This document shows positions 1 through 14,719 of a stretch of 19,706 nucleotides of DNA, piece after piece. The stretch spans positions 1-19,706 of IMG/VR virus record IMGVR_UViG_2617270940_000004; one strand, written 5' to 3'. The notes under the pieces are model-generated. The model did not search any database. It saw only the letters and a list, made by a program, of their open reading frames with translations, and was not told the DNA's origin. The position numbers were made by a program, and so were the translations under genes. How positions within the stretch are numbered: position 1 is the stretch's first letter; every line of letters begins with the position of its first letter. This DNA is from a virus. Taxonomy: Duplodnaviria > Heunggongvirae > Uroviricota > Caudoviricetes.

Positions 1-128
1 ATTTCAGCGCAGACAATCACATCGCTGCCCGGTTGTATGCGCGAGGTTACCGACTGCGGCCTGAGTTTTTTAAGTGACGTAAAATCGTGTTGAGGCCAAC
101 GCCCATAATGCGGGCAGTTGCCCGGCAT
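1..128 (-). CDS. insB: IS1 transposase InsB, 5' part only (truncated by window edge)
   Basis: Minus-strand reading from ATG at 128 gives [43 protein letters not shown], matching recalled InsB N-terminus; overlaps insA 3' end in another frame as in IS1. Confidence 0.8.
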
Positions 129-322
129 CCAACGCCATTCATGGCCATATCAATGATTTTCTGGTGCGTACCGGGCTGAGAGGCGGTGTAAGTGAACTGT
201 AGTTGCCATGTTTTACGGCAGTGAGAGCAGAGATAGCGCTGATGTCCGGCGGTGCTTTTGCCGTTACGCACCACCCCGTCAGTAGCTGAACAGGAGGGAC
301 AGCTGATAGAAACAGAAGCCAC
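47..322 (-). CDS. insA: IS1 transposase subunit InsA
   Basis: 91 aa [46 protein letters not shown]... matches recalled IS1 InsA (zinc-finger N-terminus, HTH C-terminus). Confidence 0.9.
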
Positions 323-557
323 TGGAGCACCTCAAAAACACCATCATACACTAAATCAGTAAGTTGGCAGCATCACCGGCTACGCAGAAGCAGCCAAACG
401 CCCCGTGGTTGCGCCGGAAGCAATCGGGCAAGGAAGTGCTGGTGAATAAAAACGAGCACCTTGCGGACGCTGTCGCATCGATTTACACCGGTATGCAAAC
501 TGATCAATTCCGTCAGGTTCGCGATGTTCTTGCTGGAATTTTATAAGTTGATAATTG

Positions 558-577
558 ATAGGTAAGTGCTTATCTAT
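558..577. promoter_or_regulatory. Family A palindromic site (putative operator), imperfect
   Basis: ATAGGTAAGTGCTTATCTAT; near-palindrome matching recurring consensus ATAGGTAAGTAYTTACCTAT. Confidence 0.4.
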
Positions 578-587
578 TACCATGAGA

Positions 588-610
588 CCACTATATATAG
601 TGGTTTTTTT
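588..610 (+). terminator. Rho-independent terminator candidate
   Basis: Perfect hairpin CCACTATATATAGTGG (588-603) followed by T7 run (604-610). Confidence 0.6.
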
Positions 611-811
611 AATTGGGCTACACATAATAAGCATCGTAAAACGTAACGCCCACCGAGCCGCTGCCAGCTGCATGAAGCGCTGACAAAGTTCGCTGTCGAT
701 TGCACTGGCCCGAGCCAGTTCGAATACCTCTAAGCCGAGTTTAACCACTTTGTGGCTTGGCGCTGCTGGGTCAAAATTGGCGTATCAAAAGAAGTCTAAA
801 GGAAAGAAAAC

Positions 812-1690
812 ATGAAATTTACGAAACTGACCGATCATCTGAAACTTGCCGCAGACAAACTCGTGGGGTTTAAACCAGAGCCTTACGAGTTGAATCCCGG
901 TTTCGGCAAGACAACGGAAAGCATCTACCTGATGGTTGACCAGTTCCACACACTGTTTCAGCACCCACGCCGTGCCATTCCAGATCCGGCATTACTGCGT
1001 CTGCGTGCCAAGCTGATCCACGAAGAAGCAGTTACTGAGGGCATCCCGGCAGCCAAAAATGGGGATATGACGGCACTGCTGGACGCGATGGCTGACTTCC
1101 TTTACGTGGGCGTCGGCACAATGGTGGCCATCAAAGGCGGCATCTCGACGGGCATGAGTTACTACACCCAAGAGCAGAGTGTTGATCGCTTCATCCACAC
1201 CATCATGGTTCCGGGCAACACGGTCTTTGACGATATGGCTATCCCGTTTGAAGAAGCAAAAGAAGCTGCATTAATGCTGAATGCGCTGGCTGACAAACTT
1301 GAAGCGAAGCCGATAAGCGATTCCGAATTGGTGCAGGAGCTGCGCCGCGTGATGAACAAAATCTACGTTGCCTGCATGATGACCTACCGTCTGGCTGATT
1401 TTCTCGGAATCGATATTGTTGAGCTGGTGGCAGAAATCCACCGTTCCAACATGACCAAGCTGTGGCCGGCTGACGCCGAAGAGCGTCGTGTGGCGGTAGA
1501 GAATTGCAAATATGACAAGGAAGACCTGGGCTTCCGCCATGCTGAAGGGACTGACATGATGATCGGTTTCAGGGTTTCTGATGGCAAGATCCTCAAATCT
1601 CCCACCTACAGCGATGTGGATCTGACTTGCTTTGTTGAGAAGGCGAAGTCCTCATCTCTTTACGAGATGGTAAAAAATAATTGTAAGTGA
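812..1690 (+). CDS. MazG/HisE-like all-alpha NTP pyrophosphohydrolase (two tandem repeats; possibly dimeric-dUTPase-like)
   Basis: 292 aa; RBS AAGGA 8 nt upstream of ATG. Contains LIHEEAVTEGIPAAKNGDMTALLDAMADFLY (EExxE ... DxxxD pattern typical of MazG/HisE-type pyrophosphohydrolases) and a second similar half (ELRRVMNKIYVACMMTYRLADFLGIDIVELVAEI). Family call from motif recollection only. Confidence 0.5.
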   Translation: MKFTKLTDHLKLAADKLVGFKPEPYELNPGFGKTTESIYLMVDQFHTLFQHPRRAIPDPALLRLRAKLIHEEAVTEGIPAAKNGDMTALLDAMADFLYVGVGTMVAIKGGISTGMSYYTQEQSVDRFIHTIMVPGNTVFDDMAIPFEEAKEAALMLNALADKLEAKPISDSELVQELRRVMNKIYVACMMTYRLADFLGIDIVELVAEIHRSNMTKLWPADAEERRVAVENCKYDKEDLGFRHAEGTDMMIGFRVSDGKILKSPTYSDVDLTCFVEKAKSSSLYEMVKNNCK

Positions 1691-1753
1691 GTACTTATCA
1701 TTATATATTGCCTTGGCGTGTTTTATTGTCCAAGTTCTTAATTGCTCATTGCA

Positions 1754-1783
1754 ATGGTGGCCGAAGAGCCACCATTTTTTTTT
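1754..1783 (+). terminator. Rho-independent terminator
   Basis: Stem ATGGTGGC / GCCACCAT with loop CGAAGA, followed by T9 run. Confidence 0.75.
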
Positions 1784-1833
1784 ACTCCCTTCCTAGCCTT
1801 ACACACTTCTGACAGATAAACTTGTATAAAATA

Positions 1834-1853
1834 ATAGGTATGCACTTACTTAT
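1834..1853. promoter_or_regulatory. Family A palindromic site (putative operator), degenerate
   Basis: ATAGGTATGCACTTACTTAT directly upstream of the ThyA-like gene; outer ATAGGTA...TTAT conserved. Confidence 0.4.
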
Positions 1854-1870
1854 CTTGTGTGAGGTTGATT

Positions 1871-2974
1871 TTGTCTATCCTACTGAATCGAGACTTTACG
1901 AACGGTCAGTTTGCCAGTGGTTCGTATGCCAAAGTGGTTGAAACGGTGCTCAACACTGGCGTTCACGCGGGTGATCGCACCGGAACCGGCACAAAAAGTG
2001 TTTCATATGTCCCTTCCTACTACATGCTGACGGGCGGATCTGTTCCACTTATCTCCGGAAAAGCCGTCAATCTGAAGCCGTTACTGGTTGAGCTGGAGTG
2101 GTATCTCAAAGGAACAGGCAACATCCAGTTCCTGAAAGACAATGGCGTCAAAATCTGGGATGCCTGGGCCGATGAAAATGGCGATTTAGGCCCGGTCTAT
2201 GGCAAGCAATGGCGTCGGTGGGAAGACACTCGCATCGTGAGCCATAGCGAGTATCTGCGCAAAATCGACACGTTCCGTGAGCGCGGGTACAAGGTCGAGG
2301 GGTATCTGGGCGTAAGTGAAGATCGCGTTGTGTTGTCCCGTGAAATTGACCAGCTACAGCGTATCGTTGACACGCTTCGCACCAACCCTACAGATCGTCG
2401 CATCCTGCTGAATGCCTGGAATGTTGGCGAACTGGAAGATATGAAGCTGCCGCCATGCCATTTCGTGTTTTCACTGTGGAGTCGCGAGCTGGACTTTGAG
2501 ACCCGACTGACTATGGCCACCGACATTGGCATACAGCACAACCGCCACGGCCACGAGTCCATGTACACCCAGATGCTGTGTCTTCTGGAAAGAGATGGCG
2601 GCATTACTGAGAACATGCTGGACGAGCTGGGCATCCCGAAACGCATTCTGAACTCATGCCTGGTTCAACGCAGTGTCGATACCTTTGTTGGTATGCCGTT
2701 CAACATCGCCGGTTACGGCATTCTCACCCACTTCCTCGCGAAGATCACCGGCCACATGGCTGGCGCATTCGTGCATTTTGGCTTTGACGTTCATCTCTAC
2801 GACAACCACATGGAAGGCGTTGAGGAACTGATGAAGCGCGAGCCGCCCAAAGAGTCCGACCCGGTTGTCATCTTCCCGCATGAATGGGCCGAACTGGACG
2901 ACTTCAAATGGGAAGGTGTGCAGGTGTGCGGCTACAGCCCTCTTCCGTGGATCAAGGTTCCAGTGGCGGTGTGA
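1871..2974 (+). CDS. thyA: Thymidylate synthase family protein (ThyA homologue with two large insertions and an N-terminal extension)
   Basis: Contains DRTGTGT, IWDAWADENGDLGPVYGKQWRRW, DRRILLNAWNVGELEDMKLPPCHFVF (catalytic Cys in PCH), QRSVDTFVGMPFNIAGY and HLYDNHM, all matching recalled E. coli ThyA blocks. Start uncertain: ORF track gives GTG 1859, but GAGG at 1860-1863 looks like the SD for TTG 1871 (TTG 1865 also possible). Confidence 0.85.
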   Translation: MSILLNRDFTNGQFASGSYAKVVETVLNTGVHAGDRTGTGTKSVSYVPSYYMLTGGSVPLISGKAVNLKPLLVELEWYLKGTGNIQFLKDNGVKIWDAWADENGDLGPVYGKQWRRWEDTRIVSHSEYLRKIDTFRERGYKVEGYLGVSEDRVVLSREIDQLQRIVDTLRTNPTDRRILLNAWNVGELEDMKLPPCHFVFSLWSRELDFETRLTMATDIGIQHNRHGHESMYTQMLCLLERDGGITENMLDELGIPKRILNSCLVQRSVDTFVGMPFNIAGYGILTHFLAKITGHMAGAFVHFGFDVHLYDNHMEGVEELMKREPPKESDPVVIFPHEWAELDDFKWEGVQVCGYSPLPWIKVPVAV

Positions 2975-2975
2975 T

Positions 2976-3389
2976 ATGGCCAGAGGGATGTATGTGTTGT
3001 GTGAAATTGAAGGTGTGCTGGCGAGAGCCAGCCATCGCAAAGCAGTGCCTGATGCGGATGCAGGCGCTCTTATTGCCGGTGATGAACTCATCTTTCCCAC
3101 CAGCCGCATGTTGCGTGGTTTTGCTCGCTCCGGTGCTGAAGTGGTGCTTATCAGTAGTCGTCCGGAAGCGCTCGAAGGCCCAACCAAGCGCTGGCTGAAG
3201 GACTTCGGCATTGATTATGACTGGCTCCACCTGGTTCCGCGCGGTGTCAGTTTTGAAACCCATATCAAGCGCACGCTGGCAGAGCACAAAGGCGACTTAC
3301 TTATCGCCGCACTGGTTCATGATCCGCGTCTGCGTTCTGCGCTGGCAAATTCTCACCAGCGACCAACCATCTATGAGGTAAGCCAATGA
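2976..3389 (+). CDS. HAD-superfamily, NT5C-like 5'(3')-deoxyribonucleotidase-fold protein with non-canonical motif I (ExE instead of DxD)
   Basis: ATG at 2976, 1 nt after the ThyA stop; stop overlaps DHFR start (ATGA). MYVLCEIEGVLA aligns with the HAD/NT5C motif hhhhDxDGVL; later blocks (VVLISSRPEALEGPTKRWLKDFGIDYDWLHLV, LLIAALVHDP) fit HAD motifs II-IV. Weak, motif-level call. Confidence 0.4.
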   Translation: MARGMYVLCEIEGVLARASHRKAVPDADAGALIAGDELIFPTSRMLRGFARSGAEVVLISSRPEALEGPTKRWLKDFGIDYDWLHLVPRGVSFETHIKRTLAEHKGDLLIAALVHDPRLRSALANSHQRPTIYEVSQ

Positions 3390-3862
3390 AGATGATTGCA
3401 GCTGTCGGCCGCAACTATGAAATCGGCATTGGCAACGAACTTCCCTGGCGTTGCCCGACCGATCTGAAACTGTTCAAACAACTCACCAAAAACGCCACTG
3501 TCGTGATGGGACGTAAGACGATGGAAAGTCTTAAACGCCCGCTGCCAGAGAGCCATAACCTCGTTTTGACGCGCTCTCGTGGCTATATCCCCAATGGTTT
3601 CTACCCCGCTGGCATCGATGACGTTTTAAAACTACCAGATCCGGTCTGGGTGATTGGTGGCGGGCAGATTTACTCGCTCTTTATGCCACACGTTGAAGAG
3701 ATCTGGCTGTCGCATATTGGCGTGGATGTGTCGGGCGCGGATGCGTTCTTCCCGGCGCCAATGATGCGTTCTTTAGGGTTCGTACCAGTCGAAACGGCTT
3801 ATACCCAACGTGCAAATGAGGATGAGCCTGGCTTTTTGCAGATCGTATACAGAAGGTCGTAA
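3386..3862 (+). CDS. folA: Dihydrofolate reductase
   Basis: 158 aa; MKMIAAVGRNYEIGIGNELPWRCPTDLKLFKQLTKNATVVMGRKTMESLKRPLP parallels the DHFR N-terminus (IAA..IG..MPW..P.DL..FK..T....V.MGR.T.ES...PLP); VIGGGQIY matches the glycine-rich NADPH loop. GAGG RBS 7 nt upstream. Confidence 0.85.
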   Translation: MKMIAAVGRNYEIGIGNELPWRCPTDLKLFKQLTKNATVVMGRKTMESLKRPLPESHNLVLTRSRGYIPNGFYPAGIDDVLKLPDPVWVIGGGQIYSLFMPHVEEIWLSHIGVDVSGADAFFPAPMMRSLGFVPVETAYTQRANEDEPGFLQIVYRRS

Positions 3863-4506
3863 TGGATTACCGGATTGGAATCACTGGCGCACAGGGCAGT
3901 GGGAAAACAACCCTGGCAAGGTACATCGATGCGCACTATGGCATTCCGTATGTGGATGCTGGTGTTGGCAAGCTGATGAGCAGTCTGGGGGTGAAGGTTG
4001 GCGAGCGTTTGCCCCTTTACGAGCGTCTTCAGGTTCAGATGGAGATTGCCAGACACATCGAGATGATCACCCGCGGCGTTGAAGGTTTTGTCATCGACCG
4101 CACGCCAGCCGATGTCATGGCTTATACGCTTGACCTGGTCGGCCAGACCAACGAAGACCGCTGCATCGAGCTGGCTCTCGACATTGAGCAGTTTTGCCAC
4201 AAAGCGACCATTTCCAACTTCAATGCTATAGCGGGTCTTCGCCCGGGCGTTGAGCTTTCCAGCAAAGATCTCGCGCGTCCCCAGCGAGGATCGCTTGACC
4301 GTCTCTATGTTGCTCGCATCGATGCACTTATGTGTGGCGAGCTGACGAAAATTAGCGCCCTTCCCCATACCGGCGATTTGCAGGTTTTCATTATCTCTGA
4401 AAAGTGCCGCACGGTTGAGGCGCGAGCCAGATCGGTATTGCGTGTGCTGGAAAGAGCCACTGAAAACATCGAGAGCCGTATAACAGGACGAGTGACCTTC
4501 CACTGA
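3862..4506 (+). CDS. P-loop nucleotide kinase, T4 gp1-like deoxynucleoside monophosphate kinase candidate
   Basis: Walker A IGITGAQGSGKTTLA at N-terminus; FVIDRTPADVMAY resembles the PDTRQDHE region of T4 gp1 as recalled. Start overlaps DHFR stop (TAATG). Confidence 0.55.
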   Translation: MDYRIGITGAQGSGKTTLARYIDAHYGIPYVDAGVGKLMSSLGVKVGERLPLYERLQVQMEIARHIEMITRGVEGFVIDRTPADVMAYTLDLVGQTNEDRCIELALDIEQFCHKATISNFNAIAGLRPGVELSSKDLARPQRGSLDRLYVARIDALMCGELTKISALPHTGDLQVFIISEKCRTVEARARSVLRVLERATENIESRITGRVTFH

Positions 4507-4569
4507 ATGTTGTTCCCCTGTTGGGCAGTGTGACAATAAGACACGCGAAATGAATTGAGGAAAAACAGA

Positions 4570-4989
4570 ATGATAGATGAACTTCCCCTGTCGGATGAAT
4601 TAGATCGCAAAGCGATTGAAGCACTGATCCGTATTGCTGACGAACAATCCCGTTCCTTAATGAGTGAACGTGAAGCACGTCTGGCTATCCGAGCAGTGTT
4701 TGAGTCCGTTCAAGGTCTTGTTGGGGAAGAGGTTGGTGAAGCCATTAATGCGGCGATGTCGCAATTCAATGGCGGCACCAAGCGCTCTCTGTTTCCTATG
4801 CATCTCAAACTCTCGGGCGGTACGGTTTTTTATGTGTCCGTTTGCCTGGAGACTAACCAAATCCAGCTCCTCAACACGTCAACGGGCGAATGGCGTGAGC
4901 CGGTCGTCTGCGAAAGCGGCGAGGACGCACTAAAAAAGGCTGCTCAGTTTGTGCGTGGCGCACTGCTGAAAGGCGCGAAGAAGCTGTAA
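4570..4989 (+). CDS. Hypothetical protein
   Basis: ATG at 4570 with GAGGA 8 nt upstream (ORF track TTG start at 4555 lies inside the SD); 139 aa, no recognisable motif. Confidence 0.5.
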   Translation: MIDELPLSDELDRKAIEALIRIADEQSRSLMSEREARLAIRAVFESVQGLVGEEVGEAINAAMSQFNGGTKRSLFPMHLKLSGGTVFYVSVCLETNQIQLLNTSTGEWREPVVCESGEDALKKAAQFVRGALLKGAKKL

Positions 4990-4998
4990 GGAGTACCA

Positions 4999-5553
4999 AT
5001 GACCACGATTGTCGGTGGCGTCGATATTGAGTCCACGGGGCTGGACTTCACATCCGGCCACAAAATTATCGAAATCGCGATATCTCGTTATGAACTGGAA
5101 ACCCAGAAGCGCATTGACAGCCTTGAGATGCGCTTCAACCCGCGTCGTAGCATCGATCTGAAGGCGCAGGCTGTACATGGTATCTCTCTGGAAGAACTGG
5201 CTGCTGAACCGCTGTTGGCTGATCACGCAGGTAAGATTGCTGCATATATGGGGGCATGTAGCGCGTTAGTCGCCCATAACGGGGAGGCTTTTGACCTTCC
5301 GTTCATTCGCCACGAGTTCGGAAGCTATGGAGTGAAATTGCCAGAAATCCCTCTGGTTGACACTCTATTTTCCCTGTGGGCTACCGAGGATGGGAAGCGC
5401 CCACGCCTGGAAGAGCTGGCATTCTCACTTGGGTTCACTTACGACCGTGAGAAAGCCCACAGTGCTCTCTACGATACTGATCTGATGATGCAGTGTTTCT
5501 TCAAAGCCCGAGAGAAATACGGCTTCTTCAAACTCCCATTCGAAAGCGCCTGA
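4999..5553 (+). CDS. DnaQ-like (DEDDh) 3'-5' exonuclease
   Basis: Exo I DIESTGL, Exo II ALVAHNGEAFDLPFI, Exo III HSALYDTD; AAGGAG RBS 5 nt upstream of ATG. Confidence 0.7.
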   Translation: MTTIVGGVDIESTGLDFTSGHKIIEIAISRYELETQKRIDSLEMRFNPRRSIDLKAQAVHGISLEELAAEPLLADHAGKIAAYMGACSALVAHNGEAFDLPFIRHEFGSYGVKLPEIPLVDTLFSLWATEDGKRPRLEELAFSLGFTYDREKAHSALYDTDLMMQCFFKAREKYGFFKLPFESA

Positions 5554-5568
5554 TGGCGCTTTTTCTTT
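5543..5568 (+). terminator. Rho-independent terminator candidate overlapping the exonuclease stop codon
   Basis: Stem AAAGCGCC / GGCGCTTT with loop TGAT, followed by TTTTTCTTT. Confidence 0.5.
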
Positions 5569-5681
5569 GCCTCCAGTTCCTTTAACTGCCTGTAGTTATG
5601 ACTTTTCTGCCTGATAGGTTTTGCCAGAATAAGCTCAACCAAAACGCGGAAATGCACCAACGAAAACATAAGGAGTTAAAA

Positions 5682-6554
5682 ATGAGCGCAGTTTCAAACA
5701 TTGTTAAAAACGATGACCTGGATGAATTGACTGCAATGCTGCAATCTCTCGAAGAACCGGTTCTGAAAGCTGCGAAAATGAGCGGTATCGACGAGATCGA
5801 CGATCTTCTCTCTGGTCTGGATGATGCAATCGCAAAACCAGTCGAGGCGGTGGCAGATGAAGTCATGAATGTCAGCTCTACCGGCGATCTGAGTGGCGTT
5901 CTGGAAGAGCTTGAGATTGCACACGAATCGGTGAAGGTCGAGGAGCCAGAGCGTGGCCCTATTGCGGAGATAGTGGACGAGCCAACACCTGAACTTGATG
6001 CTCGAAGCGCTGAGACCACCGATATAGCTCCAACGCTTTTACCTTCAGTGGAGTCTGGGCCTAAACCTGAAGAAGAGCAGCCAAAACACCAGAAGGCACA
6101 ATCAAAGCGTGCGCCGACCAAACCTCGCTTCACGCTGGAGGGTAAGGATGAATCGTTCTATGTGACAGCCGGTCTGGATAGTGAGCGCTTTACTGCCGCA
6201 TTCGAAGGCGCGCCGATCAAAGCGAAAGACAAAATCTTAAACCTCCTGAACTGGTTTAGTGGTGGCCCGGAAATCAGCGTCTACACGGTAATCGCAATGC
6301 GCCATATTCTTGATACGAACACGGCGACCAGCAATAGCATTAAACTGGCGCTAATGAGCTACCCGGAGAAACCATATCCACTTAACACGGCTTCGACTCA
6401 GGCTGGCCAGATGATGGCTGTGTTTCCGGCCACAGGCATTGCCACCAGAGAAGGTGGAAATCTAACGCTTAATAAAGAGTCGCCGATCGTCAAAAAATTC
6501 ATAGCGGAGTATTCCATTGAACAATGTTCCTCTGCACGATCTAAAGCACCCTGA
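5682..6554 (+). CDS. Hypothetical protein with acidic, low-complexity N-terminal half and a globular C-terminal domain
   Basis: ATG at 5682 with AAGGAG 7 nt upstream (ORF track start 5598 is an upstream TTG). N-terminal ~150 aa rich in D/E/P/S/A; C-terminal part ordinary composition. Confidence 0.55.
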   Translation: MSAVSNIVKNDDLDELTAMLQSLEEPVLKAAKMSGIDEIDDLLSGLDDAIAKPVEAVADEVMNVSSTGDLSGVLEELEIAHESVKVEEPERGPIAEIVDEPTPELDARSAETTDIAPTLLPSVESGPKPEEEQPKHQKAQSKRAPTKPRFTLEGKDESFYVTAGLDSERFTAAFEGAPIKAKDKILNLLNWFSGGPEISVYTVIAMRHILDTNTATSNSIKLALMSYPEKPYPLNTASTQAGQMMAVFPATGIATREGGNLTLNKESPIVKKFIAEYSIEQCSSARSKAP

Positions 6555-6601
6555 GAGCTTTAGGACGCTGGGTAAGCTCATTGCATACCCAGCATCGATA
6601 A

Positions 6602-6653
6602 AACGCGCCAGAGAGCTTCCCGTTTGCGAATCTGGCGCGTTCTTCTTTGTTTG
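6602..6653 (+). terminator. Rho-independent terminator candidate (preceded by a second hairpin at 6568-6594)
   Basis: 11 bp perfect stem AACGCGCCAGA / TCTGGCGCGTT with 18 nt loop, followed by CTTCTTTGTTTG. Confidence 0.55.
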
Positions 6654-6677
6654 CTATCCGTTGGATTAAATGAAAAA

Positions 6678-6697
6678 ATAGGTAAGTATTTACCTAT
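6678..6697. promoter_or_regulatory. Family A palindromic site (putative operator)
   Basis: ATAGGTAAGTATTTACCTAT, near-perfect 20 bp palindrome 12 nt upstream of the methyltransferase start. Confidence 0.55.
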
Positions 6698-6709
6698 CAG
6701 AGTAAGGTA

Positions 6710-7303
6710 ATGATCGCAGCCGAAAAAATCAAAAAGCGAGAGCGTGATGCCTCTCTTCGCGACCTTTGGCGCACACCGCAGTGGTTGTTTGTCGCCATCC
6801 AACGTTACATAGGCGTAAAGTTCGATGTGGACGTCGCCTGCAACAAAGATAATGCTCTCCTGACGAACTTTATCGGTGTTGAGCGTGATGCGCTCAAGTG
6901 CAGTTGGGGAGAACCTGGCACTGTGGCGTTCCTTAACCCGCCCTACTCCAAAATCACCCCCTGGATAGATGCAGCCATTCGCGAGCAGGCGCGTGGAGTG
7001 ACGACGGTCATGCTGATACCACAATCCCTCGATACGCAGTGGTACGAGCGTGCGGCTGAATGCGCCAACGAAACCGTCATCTTGTCTGGCGGCCGCGTGG
7101 CGTTCGTTGAGCCGGATGTTGAACTTGGGCTGGTGGAGGTGAACATCAACCCTGGTGGCAGCATGTTGCTTATCTTCCGTGGCTACTGTCAGGAAGCTGG
7201 GCACACCATCAGCAAGATACCGCTGGCGGTGATGAAAAAGCTGGGTGGTTATGACCCTGCCAATGTTGTCAGGAAGAAGAGACCACGTAAAAAGGCAGCG
7301 TAA
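6710..7303 (+). CDS. Orphan DNA N6-adenine methyltransferase (phage Dam-like family, NPPY motif)
   Basis: 197 aa; DLWRTPQWLF ... FDVDVACN ... GTVAFLNPPYS follows the layout of phage-type N6-adenine MTases; no restriction endonuclease gene adjacent. Confidence 0.75.
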   Translation: MIAAEKIKKRERDASLRDLWRTPQWLFVAIQRYIGVKFDVDVACNKDNALLTNFIGVERDALKCSWGEPGTVAFLNPPYSKITPWIDAAIREQARGVTTVMLIPQSLDTQWYERAAECANETVILSGGRVAFVEPDVELGLVEVNINPGGSMLLIFRGYCQEAGHTISKIPLAVMKKLGGYDPANVVRKKRPRKKAA

Positions 7304-7505
7304 ACACCAGTCTGGGAGTTAGTTTGAGAACCTGCTTCCGTATATATAAATAACTAAGTACTAATTATTAATATATACAGACGCAGGCTTTTTAAGACGT
7401 GATTTCCAAACAACTCCCAGACCGTTTTACACCTCCAGAACCCACTGGAGCCCCTCTCCAGACGCTCTAGAATCGATTTTATGAACCACAGTAAGGAAAA
7501 CTATC

Positions 7506-7736
7506 ATGGTATACCCGACGAACGTCGTAGCGCTCGTTGAGAGCGATTTTCTGGCCACAGTGCGCGACATGATGAAAGATCGCGATAAGGCTTTCAGTCT
7601 CTACGAATGGTCGCTCAAATGTCTTCATTCAGGCGAGCACAAAGAGCTGGTGGAGCAGCTGTTAGGGGAACTCATCAATGAGGTGTTTGCCCTGAACGTC
7701 CAGCTTCATGGGCGAGAAATTAATCAATCAATATAA
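7506..7736 (+). CDS. Hypothetical small protein (76 aa)
   Basis: ATG with AAGGA 8 nt upstream; stop codon overlaps the family A palindrome at 7736-7755. Confidence 0.5.
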   Translation: MVYPTNVVALVESDFLATVRDMMKDRDKAFSLYEWSLKCLHSGEHKELVEQLLGELINEVFALNVQLHGREINQSI

Positions 7737-7755
7737 TAGGTAAGTACTTACCATT
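7736..7755. promoter_or_regulatory. Family A palindromic site (putative operator)
   Basis: ATAGGTAAGTACTTACCATT; core GGTAAGTACTTACC is a perfect 14 bp palindrome. Confidence 0.55.
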
Positions 7756-8330
7756 CAAAACGCCACTAACCAGTGATACAATCTATCCGCTTCCGGATAC
7801 TTTCGGCAGCTCGACCTGATGGGTGGGGGATAGCGTCACTGGCGTCAGGTTTAAAAAAGCTCACTACCAGCGTAGAACCGGCACCGTTTAGGGGTTGGGG
7901 AAGGGGGAACCAAAGTGGGCAGAGAGAAGGGTCACTTTATGATTGTCGAGTCTGGAGTGTTTCGAGAGGTTGAATCCAGTACTCCCCTTCATAAAGTGTG
8001 GGAAGATCTCGGTTCTGGGGTGCTGTCATCCATAACTTCCCAAGCCTAAGCTGGCAGTAGACTTAGGTCATAACTTTTCAGGTTATGAAACGACCAGGTT
8101 GGTGAGGAAATTTTGTACTCACCTCCCTGGGAGAGTATTACCTGAAAAGACAACCTCTCACTTCGTTCGAGGTGAACTTCACTCACTTCGTTCGTTCAGT
8201 TCAGGTTTTATTAAAACCTGTTCTGGGAAGTAATTTTTCTTTTCTAAAAAATTTTTAATATTTACACGCACGCGTGCGCACACGCGCGAGGGGAAAAAAA
8301 ATCGTCGCGGCGCGCGATTCTGGAGCCAAA

Positions 8331-8939
8331 ATGACGACCAAGACCCCAGCCCGGCAACATACTGGCTGCCGCACGAAGTCCAAAGCCAGATACCAAACCC
8401 ACCAGCAATCCCGTACCAACTTCAAAACCCCCGTAGTCGAGTTCAATCCCCAGCTCAAAACCGTAAAAGTATTCAGTGATGGCTCCTGCCTCAAAAATCC
8501 GGGCGGGCCGGGCGGTTACGGCATCGTTCTCCAGTATCGAGGCGAAGAGCGCGAGCTTTCTGAGGGCTTCCACAGCACGACCAACAATCGGATGGAGATG
8601 ATGGGCGCCCTGATTGCGCTGGAGCGTCTGAAGTACCCCTGCAACGTGATCCTGCATTCCGACAGCCAGTATCTTAAAAACGGCATGACGCTCTGGATGA
8701 AAGGCTGGAAGCGTAACGGATGGATCACGTCTGAGAAGAAGCCAGTCAAAAACGTGGATCTCTGGAAACGTCTCGACGCGGCCGCCAGTCGTCATAATGT
8801 CCGCTGGAAGTGGGTTAAAGGCCATGCAGGTCATCGCGAGAACGAAATGTGTGACCGTCTGGCGAAGATCGCCGCCTATTCCGCAGCTGATATGCCTCAC
8901 AAGCATGACATTGGGTTTTTGTCACAAAAAGATAAGTAA
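8331..8939 (+). CDS. rnhA: Ribonuclease HI homologue with ~45 aa basic N-terminal extension
   Basis: [75 protein letters not shown] and [20 protein letters not shown] match recalled E. coli RNase HI blocks. Start set at ATG 8331 (GGAG 5 nt upstream); ORF is open from 8274. Confidence 0.8.
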
Positions 8940-8951
8940 GTATTTACCTAC
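8932..8951. promoter_or_regulatory. Family A palindromic site (putative operator)
   Basis: ATAAGTAAGTATTTACCTAC overlapping the RNase H stop codon (TAA 8937-8939). Confidence 0.5.
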
Positions 8952-9031
8952 TATAATAAATCAGGTATCTTATAAATCGTCAGGATGACGAAGTACCGGT
9001 TAGGTACGGTTCCAGGATGGAACGCCAAAAG

Positions 9032-9052
9032 GCGGCTGGCTTGGCCAGCCGC
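9032..9052 (+). terminator. Hairpin, weak terminator candidate
   Basis: Stem GCGGCTGGC / GCCAGCCGC with loop TTG, followed by AACTCTTTCT (poor U-tract). Confidence 0.3.
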
Positions 9053-9081
9053 AACTCTTTCTGACACTGAATGGAATCCAC

Positions 9082-9582
9082 ATGGCCCGTCAAACGTCTT
9101 TCACTTCTTTCAATAAACGTCCCCGTTCAATTCGCCTGGTGCTGACCGAGCTGTTTAGTGGTCGTGTTTCCGCACGCCTTACGGAACTGGAAGAACGAGT
9201 GTTTGAACTGGAGAAGCGCATTAATGCGCAAGCTACCGCCATAGCTAATCTGGGCACGACAGTAGGCATGGAGAAGGTGCGTAATAGCGTCGCTTCTCGT
9301 GTGTTGCGTGAAACCCGGACACACAAGGACAGTTCTCATGGAAAATTTTCAACGAAATCGACTGAAGCCAATGGCCTACGGAGTGATTTTGGCAACTCTG
9401 GCAGCGATTACCGTACCAGCCGGTCAGAGCCTTTTGATGCCGGGCACAGCTACTTCCACTGCCACCACAGCCTTGCAGATGACACCCCTGCCCGAACGAC
9501 CTCCTGTCTCTCTGGATGGGATGCTGATGGACACGATTCCAGCTCGACCTGCGACTCCGGATCTTCCTTCTGCTGTGACTGA
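9082..9582 (+). CDS. Hypothetical protein with predicted coiled-coil segment; 3' half doubtful
   Basis: 166 aa ORF; residues ~30-75 (RLTELEERVFELEKRINAQATAIANLG) look coiled-coil; C-terminal third is S/D/G/C/H-rich and overlaps an alternative-frame ORF (9338-9595), so the 3' extent is uncertain. Confidence 0.35.
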   Translation: MARQTSFTSFNKRPRSIRLVLTELFSGRVSARLTELEERVFELEKRINAQATAIANLGTTVGMEKVRNSVASRVLRETRTHKDSSHGKFSTKSTEANGLRSDFGNSGSDYRTSRSEPFDAGHSYFHCHHSLADDTPARTTSCLSGWDADGHDSSSTCDSGSSFCCD

Positions 9583-9595
9583 GGCTATTGTATGA
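9338..9595 (+). CDS. Hypothetical small membrane/secreted protein (alternative frame to 9082-9582)
   Basis: ATG 9338 with AAGGA 9 nt upstream; hydrophobic segment MAYGVILATLAAITVPA; stop overlaps start of next ORF (ATGA at 9592-9595). Confidence 0.4.
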   Translation: MENFQRNRLKPMAYGVILATLAAITVPAGQSLLMPGTATSTATTALQMTPLPERPPVSLDGMLMDTIPARPATPDLPSAVTEAIV

Positions 9596-9780
9596 AATGG
9601 AACTTCCAGAAATTCACCTTGATGATTGTTGGCTTTACCGTTTTTTTGTTTAGCGGCTGGATCATGAATCTGGTGAAACTTGTGAACGATGGTGATCTCC
9701 AGTCTCATGCCGGAGTGACACTTGCGCGTGTCGTGGGCATTTTCGTTGTTCCGGTGGGCGGCATCCTCGGGTTCTTTTGA
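9592..9780 (+). CDS. Hypothetical small membrane protein (62 aa, two predicted TM helices)
   Basis: GAGG 7 nt upstream; FTLMIVGFTVFLFSGWIM and VVGIFVVPVGGILGFF hydrophobic stretches. Confidence 0.45.
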   Translation: MKWNFQKFTLMIVGFTVFLFSGWIMNLVKLVNDGDLQSHAGVTLARVVGIFVVPVGGILGFF

Positions 9781-9802
9781 TGCTGAATGATTTTCTGCAT
9801 TG

Positions 9803-9820
9803 TTAAAACAAATTGTTTAG
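9803..9820. promoter_or_regulatory. Family B palindromic site (putative operator)
   Basis: TTAAAACAAATTGTTTAG; half-sites AAACAA / TTGTTT around a central base. Confidence 0.5.
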
Positions 9821-9846
9821 ACAAATGATTAATGAGAGTTAACAAC

Positions 9847-9870
9847 AAGGGCCGCTGACGGCCCTTTTGT
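9847..9870 (+). terminator. Rho-independent terminator candidate
   Basis: Stem AAGGGCCG / CGGCCCTT with loop CTGA, followed by TTGT. Confidence 0.55.
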
Positions 9871-9886
9871 ACTGAATGGAAAACGT

Positions 9887-10702
9887 ATGTTTGAGGTAAC
9901 TGCACACGCTCCCAGCACCACAGGCTTACATGCCAGGCCATCGATGACCAGTCAGGAGATCGCCGAAATGGTCGGCAGTCGCCATGACAGCGTAAAACGC
10001 ACCATTGAAAGACTCGCTAAATCCGGCGTTATTACTTTTCCACCAATGGTGGAAAAGCCCACTGCCGGGCGTCCGGCTACCTTTTACTTGTTCGAAGCCG
10101 AACAGGGTAAGCGCGACAGTATCGTTGTCGTGGCACAGCTTTCTCCTGAATTTACCGCACGTCTTGTTGATCGGTGGAGAGAGCTTGAATCCATGTTTGC
10201 CTACCACGGAACGCCTGCTATTCCGCGTACCTATAAAGAAGCGCTGGTTCATTTGCTGCGCCAGGTTGAGGAAAACGAGCGTCTGGAGAGTGAGAACGAG
10301 GCGTTGGGCGTAGCACTATCCAACGCAAAGCCAAAAGCCATTCTCATGGACACCATTTGCGGCACTGCTGATGAACTTTATGGGTTGAATGAAGCCGGTC
10401 GCATTCTCGGCACGTCCGGGGCTGTTCTGGGTGCGCTGATGGACTCGCTGGGTGATGTGTACGTTAAGCGCAAATACACCACTGTTAACCGCCAGTTCCT
10501 CAAGATCTTCATTGACCGCGGATATGGCAAAAACGTTGTCATCGGAAACGGTCGCAACCAGGCCAAGTTCACCTTTAAAGGGCTTTGCTTTGCAGCTGTG
10601 AAACTAATTGCAGCCGGGTTGATTGCCTCCAGCGCCATTGAATATGAGCCGTGTCGTGAGCATGTCGAACGTGCAATGAAGGAATCCAAACGTCTTCATT
10701 GA
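9887..10702 (+). CDS. Phage antirepressor-type regulator (Rha-like N-terminal domain + ANT/KilAC-like C-terminal domain)
   Basis: N-terminal MTSQEIAEMVGSRHDSVKRTIERL resembles the Rha family; C-terminal ILGTSGAVLGALMDSLGDVYVKRKYTTVNRQFLKIFIDRGYGKNVV resembles the ANT domain. Start uncertain (9887 or 9944). Confidence 0.55.
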   Translation: MFEVTAHAPSTTGLHARPSMTSQEIAEMVGSRHDSVKRTIERLAKSGVITFPPMVEKPTAGRPATFYLFEAEQGKRDSIVVVAQLSPEFTARLVDRWRELESMFAYHGTPAIPRTYKEALVHLLRQVEENERLESENEALGVALSNAKPKAILMDTICGTADELYGLNEAGRILGTSGAVLGALMDSLGDVYVKRKYTTVNRQFLKIFIDRGYGKNVVIGNGRNQAKFTFKGLCFAAVKLIAAGLIASSAIEYEPCREHVERAMKESKRLH

Positions 10703-10773
10703 CCGTCAGTATGGACGTCCACCTTTATGTAGCGTTTGGCCACCTTTTCAGTCACGTCACAATAACACAATTG

Positions 10774-10791
10774 AGAAAACAACTTGTTTAA
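10774..10791. promoter_or_regulatory. Family B palindromic site with conserved upstream ATAACA box (putative promoter/operator)
   Basis: AGAAAACAACTTGTTTAA preceded by CAATAACACAATTGAG; lies ~20 nt upstream of the 10811 start codon. Confidence 0.55.
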
Positions 10792-10810
10792 AAACATAAG
10801 GAAAAAACAC

Positions 10811-11383
10811 ATGTGCGACAAATGCAAAAAAACTAATGCCAAAGTTGAAAGCGTGATTAAAAAAGTTGGTGCGGCCGAACTGGTTGAGATCATGGGTCTT
10901 GTGGCTGGTCACGAAGACGACGCCTCCCCTATTGACCGCCTTTTCAGCGTTCTCAAGTTCTCAAGCATGATTGATGATCCGATTGAAATTGTGATGCTGG
11001 CGCGTCATTTCGGCGAAGCGTATCTGGAAGAGAAAGAACGCGCCGACAAACTTCAGGCAACTCTGGAAATGGTAAGCAAGCCGAAGTGCTCACCGGATTC
11101 AGTCAAGGCAGATGAAACCAACGCCAGCAAAGATCGTGAAATCGCCGGGTTGAAGTTTTCTCTGGCGATGTTGCTGGCCGCCTTCAAACTGATGTCTTCC
11201 CAGGCTGGATTCAAAATGCCTGAGCTGAACAGCGACGATCCGATGGCCGTTCGCCAGCTGCTGGGGGCAATGGCCGACCAGCTTGACGACACCAAGAGCC
11301 GTCTTGAAGACATGATGCGCGAGCTGACCCATCGCTACGACCTGAACAAACAGCCGCAAAAGATGCAGCCTTTACATCATTAA
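10811..11383 (+). CDS. Hypothetical protein
   Basis: ATG 10811 with AAGGA 8 nt upstream (ORF track TTG start 10784 lies inside the operator motif); 190 aa, N-terminal CDKCKK. Confidence 0.5.
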   Translation: MCDKCKKTNAKVESVIKKVGAAELVEIMGLVAGHEDDASPIDRLFSVLKFSSMIDDPIEIVMLARHFGEAYLEEKERADKLQATLEMVSKPKCSPDSVKADETNASKDREIAGLKFSLAMLLAAFKLMSSQAGFKMPELNSDDPMAVRQLLGAMADQLDDTKSRLEDMMRELTHRYDLNKQPQKMQPLHH

Positions 11384-11388
11384 TATAT

Positions 11389-11405
11389 AGGGGGCAAAGC
11401 CCCCT
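11389..11405. terminator. Bidirectional hairpin between convergent genes
   Basis: AGGGGGC AAA GCCCCCT perfect stem-loop between the stop of 10811-11383 (+) and the stop of 11409-11828 (-). Confidence 0.5.
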
Positions 11406-11408
11406 ACT

Positions 11409-11828
11409 CTACTTTGCGGCGTCTAACAATAAGCCGCAATTTTCGCTCATGTATGCCGCAGTTGCCGGATTGCCTCTGTCATTATTCGAATTGTTCATTT
11501 CAGGGTGAGCGTCCCAGGCCACTGATTCCTGAGATGATAGATAGACGGCAAAGTCGACGATTTCATCATCTCCGGTTTTAACGTTGCCAAGCAATTCATT
11601 TGCCTTTCTCCAGTGCTTCAGCGCGAGAATTCTGAACTGTTTTGCATTTTCAGCAGGCACTGCACTGGATTTGTCTGTGTAGATATTCGATATGTCGGCA
11701 TAAAGAGCGCATTTAACATAGCTGGTTGCCCTGCCGGTCTCTTTAAAACGTTGCTCTGTGTTGTTGGCGTAGACATTCACAGCAAAAGCGCTGGCAATTC
11801 CCAGCAATATAATTTTCTTCATCATCAT
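11409..11828 (-). CDS. Hypothetical secreted protein with signal peptide
   Basis: N-terminus MMMKKIILLGIASAFAVNVYA is a signal-peptide-like sequence; the only substantial minus-strand gene outside the IS elements; AT-rich; no clear SD. Confidence 0.5.
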   Translation of the reverse strand: MMMKKIILLGIASAFAVNVYANNTEQRFKETGRATSYVKCALYADISNIYTDKSSAVPAENAKQFRILALKHWRKANELLGNVKTGDDEIVDFAVYLSSQESVAWDAHPEMNNSNNDRGNPATAAYMSENCGLLLDAAK

Positions 11829-11971
11829 TACTCAATAAGGAGGCGACAAATATCTTACGTGTAGTTGTCAGTTGAGTATTAAGCAAACTCAATAAACTTA
11901 TAAGTATCTCCCTGTGCAGCCTGTGAATCCTTATTTATTACCTACTCAATTTTGAAATAATAACACCAACA

Positions 11972-11989
11972 AGAAAACAATTTGTTTAA
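11972..11989. promoter_or_regulatory. Family B palindromic site with conserved upstream ATAACA box
   Basis: AGAAAACAATTTGTTTAA preceded by TAATAACACCAACAAG; ~10 nt upstream of the 12000 start codon. Confidence 0.55.
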
Positions 11990-11999
11990 TGGTGCAGTC

Positions 12000-13685
12000 A
12001 TGAATACAGCCCTTTCCATCATTGACGCTATCACTCCAAACACTGATATCGACTACCGGCAGGAAATGAACGTTATCCACGAAATTGTGGCCGAGTGCGA
12101 GAAAGAGATCGCATTCATGCATCAGGTTCACGACTTCGTTTATGGCGACGAACGCCACAGCATGATTAACCGTCTACTGCGGCTCAATCACCGGCCGGAC
12201 GACGAGCGCACACGCTTTAACAGAACCTGGCTGGACAAAGTCGACCTGGAATGGGTGAAACAAAATATCTGGGCCGAGTACTGGAAGAAGGTCACGGATA
12301 TGACCAACGTTCTGTTGATCATGCCAGCATCCCGCCGCGACGAGTGGCGTGAACAGTTTATCGAGGGCAAGCAGGAAACGATCAAGACTGACAGAACTGG
12401 CTATCAAATGAAGGTTAAAGAGTTCGTTGGTGTACCTGAGTTCAAAGCAGAAACGGTCATACCAACGATGCTTAATTTGCTGAATGACAGGCACAAATAT
12501 CTCTCTGAGCGCGTGTATGGCTTGTTTAAGGCGTTGAGTCCTGCTCACAAGACCAATAAGACGAACGGCTTCAGCGAGCGTCTGATCATCGCCGACTGCA
12601 TTTCCGATTTCTGGCGGGACAGCGTCAGCGTTAACTACCGGAAAGAGGATTACATAGACGACCTGCGCGTCATGTTGCATTTCTTTGCACACAAAGAATT
12701 TATCACCATCAATCGCACGGCCGAGATGCTGTCAGCTGCGTATCGAGCAAATGACTGCCAGACCGGCGACTGGATGAATGTCGACGGAAACCTGATGCGT
12801 GTGAAGATGTTTAAGAACGGCAACGTTCACTTTGAAATACATCCTGACGTAGCCTGGAAGCTGAATGAGGTGCTGGCTTACAGTATGCCCGCTGCAATCC
12901 CGGCTCCATGTCGTACTGCGCCCAAAACACGGGCACCAAAACAGTTCGGGTTAATCCAGAAGACGATCTCCGAGCCGGTGCGTACTGCGCTTCGCGACGG
13001 GCGATCTGGCAATGACAAACGCGTATGGTACTTCTCTGATTCCGGTCTCCAGAAGTCACAGGTGGAAGAGCTGGAGCGTACACTGAGCTTTATTGGCGGC
13101 GTGCAGGAGAACAAGCACTGGCAGTTCCCGTATGAGATCGGCCATACGCTCAATACGATTGTGGCCACCGGCGTAATACCGGATACAAAATCACACCAGT
13201 TCTACCCTACCCCGCGTTTGATAGCGGAGTACGTTGCCAGAGCCATTGAGCTGAAACCAGGTGAGAAGCTGCTGGAGCCTGAAGCCGGGCGTGGAGATCT
13301 GCTGGCCTGCATCGACGCCAACCCGGAAGACGTCACCTGCATAGAAGTCGCGCCTCTCTTTGCTGATATCCTGCTTGGCAAGGGGTACACAAATACGGTC
13401 TGCTGCGACTTCATGAAGTGGTCTGAGAACAACGCAGGCTATCAGTTCGACAAAATCGTCATGAACCCACCCTACTCTCTCGGTCGTCACAGAGAGCACA
13501 CATTGGCCGCGCTGGGGCATCTGAAAGTTGGTGGGCGTCTGGTAGCAGTGCTGCCGGGCGACGCGCCAATTCTAAACTGGATGACGCTGGATAATTACGT
13601 TTATGCCAAAGGGAAGTCGTTTACTAACGTGTTTGAAGACACCGGGATTACTGTCAGCGTATACGTTTTTAAACGCGTTAAATGA
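12000..13685 (+). CDS. Large orphan N6-adenine DNA methyltransferase (C-terminal SAM-dependent MTase domain, N-terminal ~400 aa domain of unknown function)
   Basis: C-terminal FYPTPRLIAEYVA ... LLEPEAGRGDLL (motif I) ... DKIVMNPPYSLG (motif IV NPPY). No adjacent restriction gene. Start set at ATG 12000. Confidence 0.7.
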   Translation: MNTALSIIDAITPNTDIDYRQEMNVIHEIVAECEKEIAFMHQVHDFVYGDERHSMINRLLRLNHRPDDERTRFNRTWLDKVDLEWVKQNIWAEYWKKVTDMTNVLLIMPASRRDEWREQFIEGKQETIKTDRTGYQMKVKEFVGVPEFKAETVIPTMLNLLNDRHKYLSERVYGLFKALSPAHKTNKTNGFSERLIIADCISDFWRDSVSVNYRKEDYIDDLRVMLHFFAHKEFITINRTAEMLSAAYRANDCQTGDWMNVDGNLMRVKMFKNGNVHFEIHPDVAWKLNEVLAYSMPAAIPAPCRTAPKTRAPKQFGLIQKTISEPVRTALRDGRSGNDKRVWYFSDSGLQKSQVEELERTLSFIGGVQENKHWQFPYEIGHTLNTIVATGVIPDTKSHQFYPTPRLIAEYVARAIELKPGEKLLEPEAGRGDLLACIDANPEDVTCIEVAPLFADILLGKGYTNTVCCDFMKWSENNAGYQFDKIVMNPPYSLGRHREHTLAALGHLKVGGRLVAVLPGDAPILNWMTLDNYVYAKGKSFTNVFEDTGITVSVYVFKRVK

Positions 13686-13704
13686 GAGGTAAATACTTAC
13701 CTAA
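13685..13704. promoter_or_regulatory. Family A palindromic site (putative operator)
   Basis: AGAGGTAAATACTTACCTAA, starting at the last base of the methyltransferase stop codon. Confidence 0.5.
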
Positions 13705-13747
13705 TCTATGTAAGAATATAGTGACTATATGATAAGAGAAAAAACAC

Positions 13748-14673: not shown

Positions 14674-14719
14674 AGTTGCGCAGGGAGAGAGAGAAATCGA
14701 CGCAGAGCAGGCCCGCAAT

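Follow-up and report, generated by a model that had tools for sequence, protein, structure and literature searches.

The stretch of DNA analysed here, called the window below, comprises positions 1 to 19,706 of IMG/VR virus record IMGVR_UViG_2617270940_000004 (Caudoviricetes). It carries a module of nucleotide metabolism and replication that encodes MazG-like, ThyA, dihydrofolate reductase, exonuclease, Dam-like methylase, RNase H, Rha/Ant (9887-10702) and large methylase proteins, and the genes between the palindromic sites that are our subject all lie on its + strand. Over 84% of its length the window matches Salmonella phage SSU5 at 93% identity, and over 99% it matches, at 98.8%, pLAO18, a non-mobilizable, 111,874-bp IncFIB plasmid of E. 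coli with terminase, capsid and tail genes aboard. Because of this identity to SSU5 and to a plasmid that bears phage genes, we regard the window as a stretch of an SSU5-type phage-plasmid and not as a genomic island. A preliminary description of the sequence had noted a palindrome of about 20 bp recurring at gene junctions and had proposed a regulon across an ‘island’; the island did not hold up, since the window is part of a phage-plasmid of ~110 kb with sites throughout its genome, including the junctions of capsid and tail genes.

A search with ATAGGTAAGTAYTTACCTAT that allowed up to three mismatches returned exactly six sites in the window (558, 1834, 6678, 7736, 8932 and 13685), each on both strands, and none in 200 dinucleotide-preserving shuffles of the window. 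The six copies first reported were thus recovered at their coordinates, and the worry that shuffled sequence might hold the motif at similar density was dispelled. A symmetrised position weight matrix (PWM) built from these sites scores them at 26-32 bits. Their relations to stops and starts are as originally described: three of the six overlap stop codons, the MazG-like stop lies inside the weaker site at 1683, and two of the six lie directly upstream of starts (Table 1). The dyad contains stops in two of three frames on both strands (TAG/TAA at positions 2-4; TAA at 6-8), and therefore upstream genes often end inside it and it almost never falls within genes. Two weaker relatives had also been suggested, of which one survived. 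The site at 1683 is plausibly a weak seventh member of the family, although its junction has no PWM site of at least 14 bits in phage Cyrano or in Klebsiella phage ST13-OXA48phi12.3, which with SSU5 and pLAO18 make up the four lineages compared below. The AT-rich tract at 7341-7379 was rejected, as it scores 10-11 bits, its GTAC centre is not kept in Cyrano and it belongs to a separate hairpin. That hairpin is a long AT-rich inverted repeat at 7331-7395, between the Dam-like gene and the gene starting at 7506, and has the tract at its centre; it possesses a GC clamp (CCTGCTTCCGTATATAT...ATATATACAGACGCAGG) as well as a T run, is conserved in the four lineages and could be a large terminator or an origin-like structure.

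Table 1. Palindromic sites of the window and the promoter- and terminator-like features next to them. Positions are those of the window; scores are PWM bits.
Position	Strand	Feature	Score	Context and conservation
555-583	+	Predicted sigma-70-like promoter, TTGATA-17-TACCAT		Palindrome fills the spacer; kept in SSU5, Cyrano and the Klebsiella phage
558-577	.	Family A palindrome ATAGGTAAGTGCTTATCTAT	28.2	11 nt past the stop of the RuvC-like gene truncated by IS1; orthologues at SSU5 67775, Cyrano 67883 and Klebsiella phage 60580
584-613	+	Intrinsic-terminator-like hairpin (10-pair stem) and T run		Directly 3' of site 558; conserved in four lineages
1681-1709		Promoter-like pair, TTGTAA-17-TATATT		Encloses weak site 1683
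1683-1702	.	Weak member GTAAGTGAGTACTTATCATT	15.0	Next best in the window after the six; MazG-like stop (1688-1690) inside; also in SSU5 (72357) and pLAO18 (104068)
1834-1853	.	Family A palindrome ATAGGTATGCACTTACTTAT	26.1	Ends 17 nt before the ThyA TTG start (1871); orthologues in four lineages
6678-6697	.	Family A palindrome ATAGGTAAGTATTTACCTAT	31.8	The ATG of the Dam-like methyltransferase (6710) comes 12 nt after it
7736-7755	.	Family A palindrome ATAGGTAAGTACTTACCATT	27.5	Overlaps the final stop base of the 7506-7736 gene
7754-7782		Promoter-like pair, TTCAAA-17-TACAAT with TG		Abuts palindrome 7736-7755
8932-8951	.	Family A palindrome ATAAGTAAGTATTTACCTAC	26.9	RNase H stop codon (8937-8939) inside
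8943-8971	+	Predicted promoter-like pair, TTTACC-17-TATCTT		-35 is the right half of the palindrome
13685-13704	.	Family A palindrome AGAGGTAAATACTTACCTAA	26.1	Overlaps the final stop base of the large (DUF4942) methyltransferase (stop 13683-13685); orthologues in all four lineages
13709-13717	+	Putative extended -10-like element TGTAAGAAT		5 nt past site 13685, before the gene starting at 13748

The genome-wide search that the preliminary description called for revealed that the window holds only part of the site set. Counted at a PWM score of at least 14 bits, there are 27 sites in pLAO18 (complete), 25 in SSU5, 23 in Cyrano and 18 in the 84-kb record of the Klebsiella phage, while dinucleotide-shuffled genomes hold 0.07-0.27 each. 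With 18-27 copies per SSU5-type genome, 39 in the Rhizobium phage B1VFA discussed below and at most 0.3 in shuffles, the dyads show the high copy number of dispersed operators. Non-coding DNA makes up only 18% of pLAO18, yet 25 of its 27 sites lie between genes (binomial p = 5e-17). Each of the lytic modules has some, the structural, replication and nucleotide-metabolism modules alike: at the terminase|portal junction, after the major capsid gene, between tail genes and before the lysis genes, as well as ahead of the genes for the helicase, ligase, single-stranded DNA-binding protein (SSB) and SbcD, and of nrdA, thyA and dam. The usual layout is a stop codon, 0-20 nt, the dyad, 12-70 nt and the following start codon. 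Two family-like sites do lie inside genes, in the portal and cobT-like genes (pLAO18 71656 and 24726; Cyrano 3527; SSU5 3544 and 43661); these use the only stop-free frame of the dyad and are conserved between lineages, as functional sites or perhaps just as coding sequence.

Conservation at orthologous positions, the absence of which had been named as grounds for doubt, was found for all six window sites in SSU5, Cyrano and the Klebsiella phage. The coding DNA of the latter is only ~78% identical to the window, and the six junctions still carry the dyad. In four-way alignments, 75% of the dyad columns are invariant against 54% of the flank columns, coding sequence included in the flanks; at site 6678 this holds for 16 of the 20 columns while the neighbouring intergenic flank diverges, and at site 8932 for 17 of 20. 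Outside these genomes, an exact-match scan of IMG/VR with AGGTAAGTACTTACCT yielded 35 loci, of which 31 align to pLAO18, usually with several sites each, and the other four have single matches only. When 5,426 complete E. coli genomes were scanned, sequences agreeing at 19 or more of the 20 positions were confined to plasmids of 100-150 kb, with none on a chromosome. Since E. coli matches are restricted to plasmids and those in IMG/VR are mostly SSU5-like, the motif belongs to the element family and not to the host. A regulon of a host transcription factor or a repetitive extragenic palindromic (REP)-like repeat was rejected because of the lack of chromosomal copies in E. coli and the confinement of the motif to SSU5/B1VFA-like elements. 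The motif was singled out by a count of palindrome arms and not by k-mer over-representation under a maximal-order Markov model. We found no description of it in a search of the literature on SSU5, pHCM2-like plasmids, Cyrano and B1VFA that left most subscription-journal papers outside its reach.

The dyad also extends well beyond the Enterobacterales. A tblastn search with the XRE-type candidate repressor introduced below reached Rhizobium phages of 115-122 kb, among them B1VFA, which its authors consider phage-plasmid-like (PMC12509600); a term search of that paper turned up neither palindromes nor promoters. B1VFA (59% GC) is syntenic with SSU5, with amino-acid identities of 54% for the large terminase subunit TerL, 51% for the portal, 41% for the MCP (major capsid protein) and 37% for DnaE. 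Its intergenic junctions hold 39 copies of RTAAGTAAGnnCTTACTTAY, and the half-site TAAGTAA is invariant in 35-37 of the 37 copies analysed. This consensus lies within the range of the SSU5-type sites (half-site ATARGTAAGT, where position 4 is A or G). B1VFA and SSU5 have two site positions in common, one between the terminase and portal genes (terminase|portal) and one behind the capsid gene, where a terminator hairpin comes next in both. B1VFA-like metagenomic contigs (TerL 65-98% identical to that of B1VFA) hold several copies each. A scan of genome contigs with TARGTAAGNNCTTACYTA returned mostly single chance matches, and a multi-site locus only in Halomonas sulfidaeris (AP019514), where an SSU5_086-like exonuclease gene accompanies six dyads spread over two chromosomal stretches close to each other; a relative that has integrated, or was misassembled, in a third host order is the probable explanation. 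Judged by these occurrences, the dyad system is apparently ancestral to a phage lineage that spans E. coli, Rhizobium and Halomonas.

Many dyads coincide with promoter-like sequence. Taking promoters as sigma-70-like consensus matches and counting over 58 SSU5-type sites, we found that a promoter with at least 9 of the 12 hexamer positions matched overlaps the dyad at 15 sites in the forward direction and at three in reverse; with at least 8 of 12 matched, the counts are 27 and 15. Three layouts recur in the SSU5-type genomes. In one, a -35 element TTGATA or TAGATA has its end at the dyad's first bases or within them, and a -10 element TATYAT occupies dyad positions 18-23 or 21-26, as at site 558, where the hexamer pair is conserved in the four lineages. 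In another, exemplified by site 8932, the right half-site TTTACC serves as the -35 element; here the TATCTT is kept in the four lineages, and an upstream TG is present in Cyrano and the Klebsiella phage. In the last, an extended -10 element follows right behind the dyad, as at site 13685, where the block ‘tttatgtaagaat’ in the 13709 region is conserved in the four lineages. The late-gene sites of B1VFA are enclosed by near-consensus TTGCAA-17-TACAAT or TTGATA-17-TATTAT pairs, and on its coding strand nine of the 14 GCGCTATAA -10-like boxes have a dyad 1-3 nt downstream, over the expected start point. This variable distance between dyad and promoter, together with the near-consensus hexamers, fits an occluding repressor and not an activator. 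Sites that lack promoter context also exist, for example at the terminase|portal junction, where the dyad contains the stop and the ATG that comes next is 17 nt further on.

We therefore lean, with some caution, towards the dyads being operators of one dimeric global repressor encoded by the phage-plasmid. The preliminary description had likewise proposed one dimeric protein and one regulon, which remains the best-supported reading, but it underestimated the scope: the network would be genome-wide and ancient within this phage-plasmid family. In the mechanism that we envisage, one helix-turn-helix (HTH) regulator would bind the dyads as a dimer and silence the lytic genes of SSU5-type phage-plasmids throughout the genome. 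Depending on the site, the dyad would fill the spacer, supply the -35 element from its right half or cover the transcription start; as it lies on or against a sigma-70-type core, a bound dimer would exclude RNA polymerase. The copies between co-transcribed late genes, such as that at terminase|portal, and other promoter-less sites are probably stoperator-like roadblocks to read-through.

The observation that the window contains no repressor gene stands, and the suggestion that the regulator lies elsewhere on the element now has a candidate, for which binding is predicted: a 129-amino-acid protein of the XRE/Cro-CI type, encoded beside the integrase gene ~65 kb away in pLAO18 (26227-26616), divergently from a 70-amino-acid gene, with Cyrano counterpart CYRAN_45. 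Its gene has a promoter TTTACA-16-TAATAT whose last -10 bases to about +12 are spanned by a dyad (pLAO18 26179-26198), and a weak second dyad (26142) lies on the -35 element; the arrangement in Cyrano is identical. The B1VFA homologue (B1VFA_128; 32% identical; HTH_3 domain, E = 5e-7) is situated between two dyads. As expected of an autoregulated repressor gene, then, the motif sits on the XRE promoter in pLAO18 and Cyrano and flanks the gene in B1VFA, and the protein would control its own synthesis through it. CYRAN_45 has been described as a putative master repressor, expressed 10-fold above background in an LF82 lysogen (PMC9928086). The 51 homologues all bear the annotation XRE regulator or no name, and the ones on long contigs come mostly from records of ~100-116 kb. 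In 21 aligned enterobacterial homologues, 55-84% identical to the reference, eight of the 12 positions of the recognition helix NPNNLSLIKSGK are invariant and the other four are at least 90% conserved. The AlphaFold model, of good confidence at residues 13-81, matches C.AhdI, 434 Cro and the N-domain of the lambda repressor (cI) with target-normalised TM scores of 0.65-0.8 and weak E-values. Taken together, these features make the XRE protein our preferred, though still tentative, choice among three candidate binders of the dyads. A phage sigma factor as reader of the motif was rejected: tblastn with B1VFA_132 (Sigma70_r2) found no homologue in pLAO18, Cyrano or SSU5.

The XRE protein has no peptidase (cleavage) domain, and induction would for this reason need an antirepressor. 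At positions 16085-16100 the window has a perfect SOS-box core (CTGT-N8-ACAG, the centre rich in A and T), 17 nt before an open reading frame (ORF) of 88 amino acids (16118-16384). The box is conserved at the corresponding position of pLAO18, SSU5 and the Klebsiella phage; in Cyrano an SOS box precedes an S24-peptidase-like gene. A second SOS box precedes the integrase gene, next to the repressor gene. The SOS-box ORF may represent a LexA-controlled induction arm, perhaps an antirepressor, which would fit the ciprofloxacin inducibility of Cyrano (PMC9928086).

Several points weigh against a single immunity repressor. Promoter-like matches are not enriched across the window as a whole (16 found, 17.9 expected), and a terminator hairpin directly after several sites, among them site 558 and the one behind the capsid gene, is an odd place for a productive promoter. 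SSU5 lacks an XRE homologue and the whole integrase-repressor segment, yet it keeps 25 good sites, which would equally suit a binder required during the lytic cycle. Rapid divergence is usual for immunity repressors and the operators that they bind. In the present case the dyad stays constant between Rhizobium and E. coli, whereas the XRE proteins share only 32% identity (~48% in the HTH region, by hand count); in cluster A mycobacteriophages the stoperator motif drifts along with the repressor (PMC6550527). Among genes expressed in the Cyrano lysogen, one of 14 has an upstream site, against 20 of 109 others (p = 0.46); as this difference, though in the expected direction, is not significant, avoidance of lysogen-expressed genes was not used as evidence. 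With respect to SSU5 (NC_018843), the tRNA-Asn gene at 42.5-42.8 kb is followed directly by the cobT-like gene, and the integrase, XRE repressor and 70-amino-acid genes that Cyrano (39-43 kb) and pLAO18 have there are missing. This fits the description of SSU5 as virulent (PMC5427195), and it may be a recent, repressor-less deletion derivative. As for the constancy of the motif, specificity read at 25-40 operators per genome could hardly drift in concert, and on this argument one repressor-operator code might have been frozen since before the alpha- and gammaproteobacterial hosts of the lineage parted; we think this rather unlikely.

A different protein could read the same sites. The dyad might be a positive promoter element, comparable to the Lpa box in the late promoters of P1 or to the T4 MotA box, for a conserved lytic transcription factor such as an 88-amino-acid winged-helix protein resembling the LexA N-terminal domain, encoded just upstream of the small terminase gene (pLAO18 75282-75548) in all lineages, SSU5 and B1VFA (B1VFA_084) included. 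In pLAO18 the coordinates given are those of the winged-helix gene. The positional conservation of this protein, the retention of the motif in SSU5 without the XRE repressor and its constancy across hosts with little else in common, as is typical of promoter codes, all speak for such a role, as do the -10-like TATYAT that the right edge of the dyad often makes at positions 18-23 and the preference of promoter-like contexts for the direction of transcription. We nevertheless hold it to be improbable: activators need a fixed geometry, whereas the dyad may occupy the spacer, the -35 element, the region downstream of the -10 element or the start point, where it can only hinder initiation; the hexamers flanking the B1VFA sites are so near consensus that no activator should be needed; and the Pfam match of the winged-helix protein is below threshold (PF01726, E = 0.14), with a presumed recognition helix poorly conserved between E. 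coli and Rhizobium. Less probable again is that the dyads are parS- or operator B (OB)-like sites of two ParB_N-domain proteins encoded upstream of the packaging genes, acting as a KorB-like silencer or as N15-like dispersed centromeres. The element is a plasmid-prophage, both proteins are conserved from SSU5 to B1VFA (~41% identical), and ParB and KorB sites are short palindromes, the 12 OB sites of plasmid RK2 regulating many operons. A dyad is also present in the divergent UvsW|ParB region of pLAO18 (16.6 bits), the Klebsiella phage (14.5 bits; both weak) and B1VFA, and none of at least 14 bits in that of Cyrano; since most operon starts carry a site, its proximity to the ParB gene is uninformative. 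Against this proposal, only the ParB_N (Srx-like) domain and no HTH was detected in the two proteins, partition is more likely the task of a separate ParA and its small partner gene, and 25-39 sites on promoter cores are unlike the placement of parS or OB.

The palindromes could also act in RNA, as hairpins at mRNA ends for stability, processing or termination, and their position at gene junctions, often just past stop codons, would suit this, as would the ability of most sites to fold an 8-bp stem with a 4-nt loop. An RNA stem is expected to tolerate G-U and not A-C mismatches. After the sites had been oriented by transcription, the arm mismatches numbered 19 G-U, 15 A-C and 26 other, non-pairable ones among 220 arm pairs in pLAO18, and 23, 17 and 42 among 370 in B1VFA, so that G-U does not exceed A-C overall. 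The arms vary independently (position 4/17 pairs 13 times, ~10.6 expected). In B1VFA, Watson-Crick pairing is somewhat above shuffled expectation at 9/12 (23 against 17.3, P = 0.02) and 1/20 (14 against 9.7, P = 0.07), and the outermost pair 1/20 has ten G-T and no A-C combinations, which favours the RNA. The AT-rich stems of the six window sites, however, are weak (-0.3 to -6.6 kcal/mol, the hairpin at the well-conserved site 8932 being practically nil at -0.3) and have no U tract, true terminators adjoin several sites (584-607 and 1753-1776, for example), predicted start sites fall inside the dyad, and an Rfam search of the window gave no match. The absence of a G-U bias, the independent arms and the weak hairpins indicate that sequence is conserved and not pairing, and we consider an RNA-level function very unlikely. 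A double-stranded recognition sequence, read on both strands, is the signature predicted for a dimeric DNA-binding protein, in agreement with the preliminary description. We give hardly any weight to the further option that the palindromes are recombination or mobility signals, spread like REP elements or miniature inverted-repeat transposable elements (MITEs) or marking junctions of module exchange like the promoter early stem-loop (PeSL) cassettes of T4-type phages. Sites do bracket accessory modules (pLAO18 12459 lies at the edge of a defence-gene block missing in Cyrano), and RuvC-like, SbcCD-like and RecA-like proteins are encoded on the element, but the same junctions hold the site in E. 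coli and Rhizobium phages, target duplications and longer repeat units were not found, E. coli chromosomes are devoid of the motif, and the 20-bp unit has neither coding capacity nor a dedicated transposase associated with it.

Read as operators of one repressor, the dyads invite comparison with known systems, and the dyad system is an undescribed case of the dispersed-operator architecture represented by P1 C1 and the L5 stoperators. P1 is closest in logic, being also a plasmid-prophage with one repressor and operators scattered over a genome of ~90-110 kb. Its C1 protein does not cleave itself, is inactivated by an antirepressor and is autoregulated, as we propose for the XRE candidate. The late genes of P1 are under indirect control, through the activator Lpa; the dyads, in contrast, sit directly at capsid and tail junctions. 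The P1 operator is asymmetric (ATTGCTCTAATAAATTT), C1 is not of the XRE type, and there is no sequence or protein homology to the dyad system; the 22 dispersed operators of C1, its 17-bp asymmetric site and antirepressor-based induction have been described (PMC8546580). In L5 (repressor gp71) and other cluster A phages, 20-30 repressor sites are distributed over the whole genome, for the most part in short gaps between genes; few are true promoter operators and most block elongation (PMC6550527). The dyads show a similar mix, some copies being embedded in promoter-like sequence and others lying between late genes that are transcribed together. L5 stoperators are 13-bp, asymmetric and oriented with transcription, and their consensus drifts between subclusters, giving heteroimmunity, unlike the 20-bp symmetric dyad, which has no orientation and keeps one consensus over alpha- and gammaproteobacterial hosts. 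As both halves of the dyad share base preferences, any likeness to stoperators is at most one of function, and the dyad falls outside their asymmetric subtype. The repressor c of phiC31 binds symmetric conserved inverted repeats (CIRs) of ~17 bp at well over a dozen intergenic loci. The CIRs resemble the dyads in symmetry, although phage lineage, repressor family and sequence are unrelated, and they are concentrated in the early region, whereas dyads also occur in the structural gene cluster. KorB of RK2 co-ordinates many operons as one protein with a defined HTH, through 12 OB sites, each 13 bp long and many lying far from promoters; the likeness lies in a short palindrome repeated across a plasmid genome, the difference in the lack of a detected HTH in the ParB_N proteins and in the position of the dyads on promoter cores.

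SSU5-type phage-plasmids are common in clinical Enterobacterales and able to carry resistance genes, and how they remain silent as plasmids and are induced is essentially unstudied. The site map supplies a putative 20-bp operator, a named candidate repressor, ~25 predicted target promoters and a relative, SSU5, without that repressor, along with the possible LexA-controlled induction arm within the window. If the repressor-operator code is indeed frozen, immunity specificity would be common to all SSU5-type phage-plasmids, the pHCM2-like and resistance-gene plasmids of Enterobacterales included; one protein or decoy DNA could then suffice to silence or induce every one of these elements, and SSU5 would be a natural ‘clear’ derivative with its operators kept and its repressor gone. 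That phages of E. coli and of Rhizobium have an identical motif is out of the ordinary for immunity systems, and it allows the idea that operator number freezes specificity to be tested.

Some further features were noted in passing. The promoter-like pair at 1681-1709 is succeeded, ~45 nt downstream, by a strong terminator (1753-1776 and a T run) that precedes site 1834 and thyA, and the segment 1681-1785 could give rise to a transcript of ~65 nt or an attenuator-like leader. The left end of the window is formed by a copy of insertion sequence IS1 (1-377; insA at 47-322, minus strand), which cuts off the RuvC-like gene, and the right end by a copy of IS2 (18387-19706). The nrdA and nrdB genes, which lie between the RuvC-like and MazG-like genes in SSU5 and Cyrano, are missing from the window (607-812) and from pLAO18. 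Elsewhere in pLAO18 (81094-81621) a full-length FljA-like protein is encoded (Pfam Flag1_repress, E = 7e-95); FljA is the phase-1 flagellin repressor, and its presence suggests that the phage-plasmid might interfere with flagellin expression of the host. Low-GC metagenomic phage contigs in IMG/VR (GC ~0.41), with no detectable relation to the SSU5 lineage, contain a single GTAAGTAAGTACTTACTTAC in a conserved context (…ttgtaacctctttac-aa…). At about ten early-type junctions of B1VFA (MT770738), a cassette of ~60 nt, CGCTCAcnACCTG ... yTCCC ... GCGCTATAA, is followed directly by the dyad, as at 440-505, 4490-4555 and 104700-104765.

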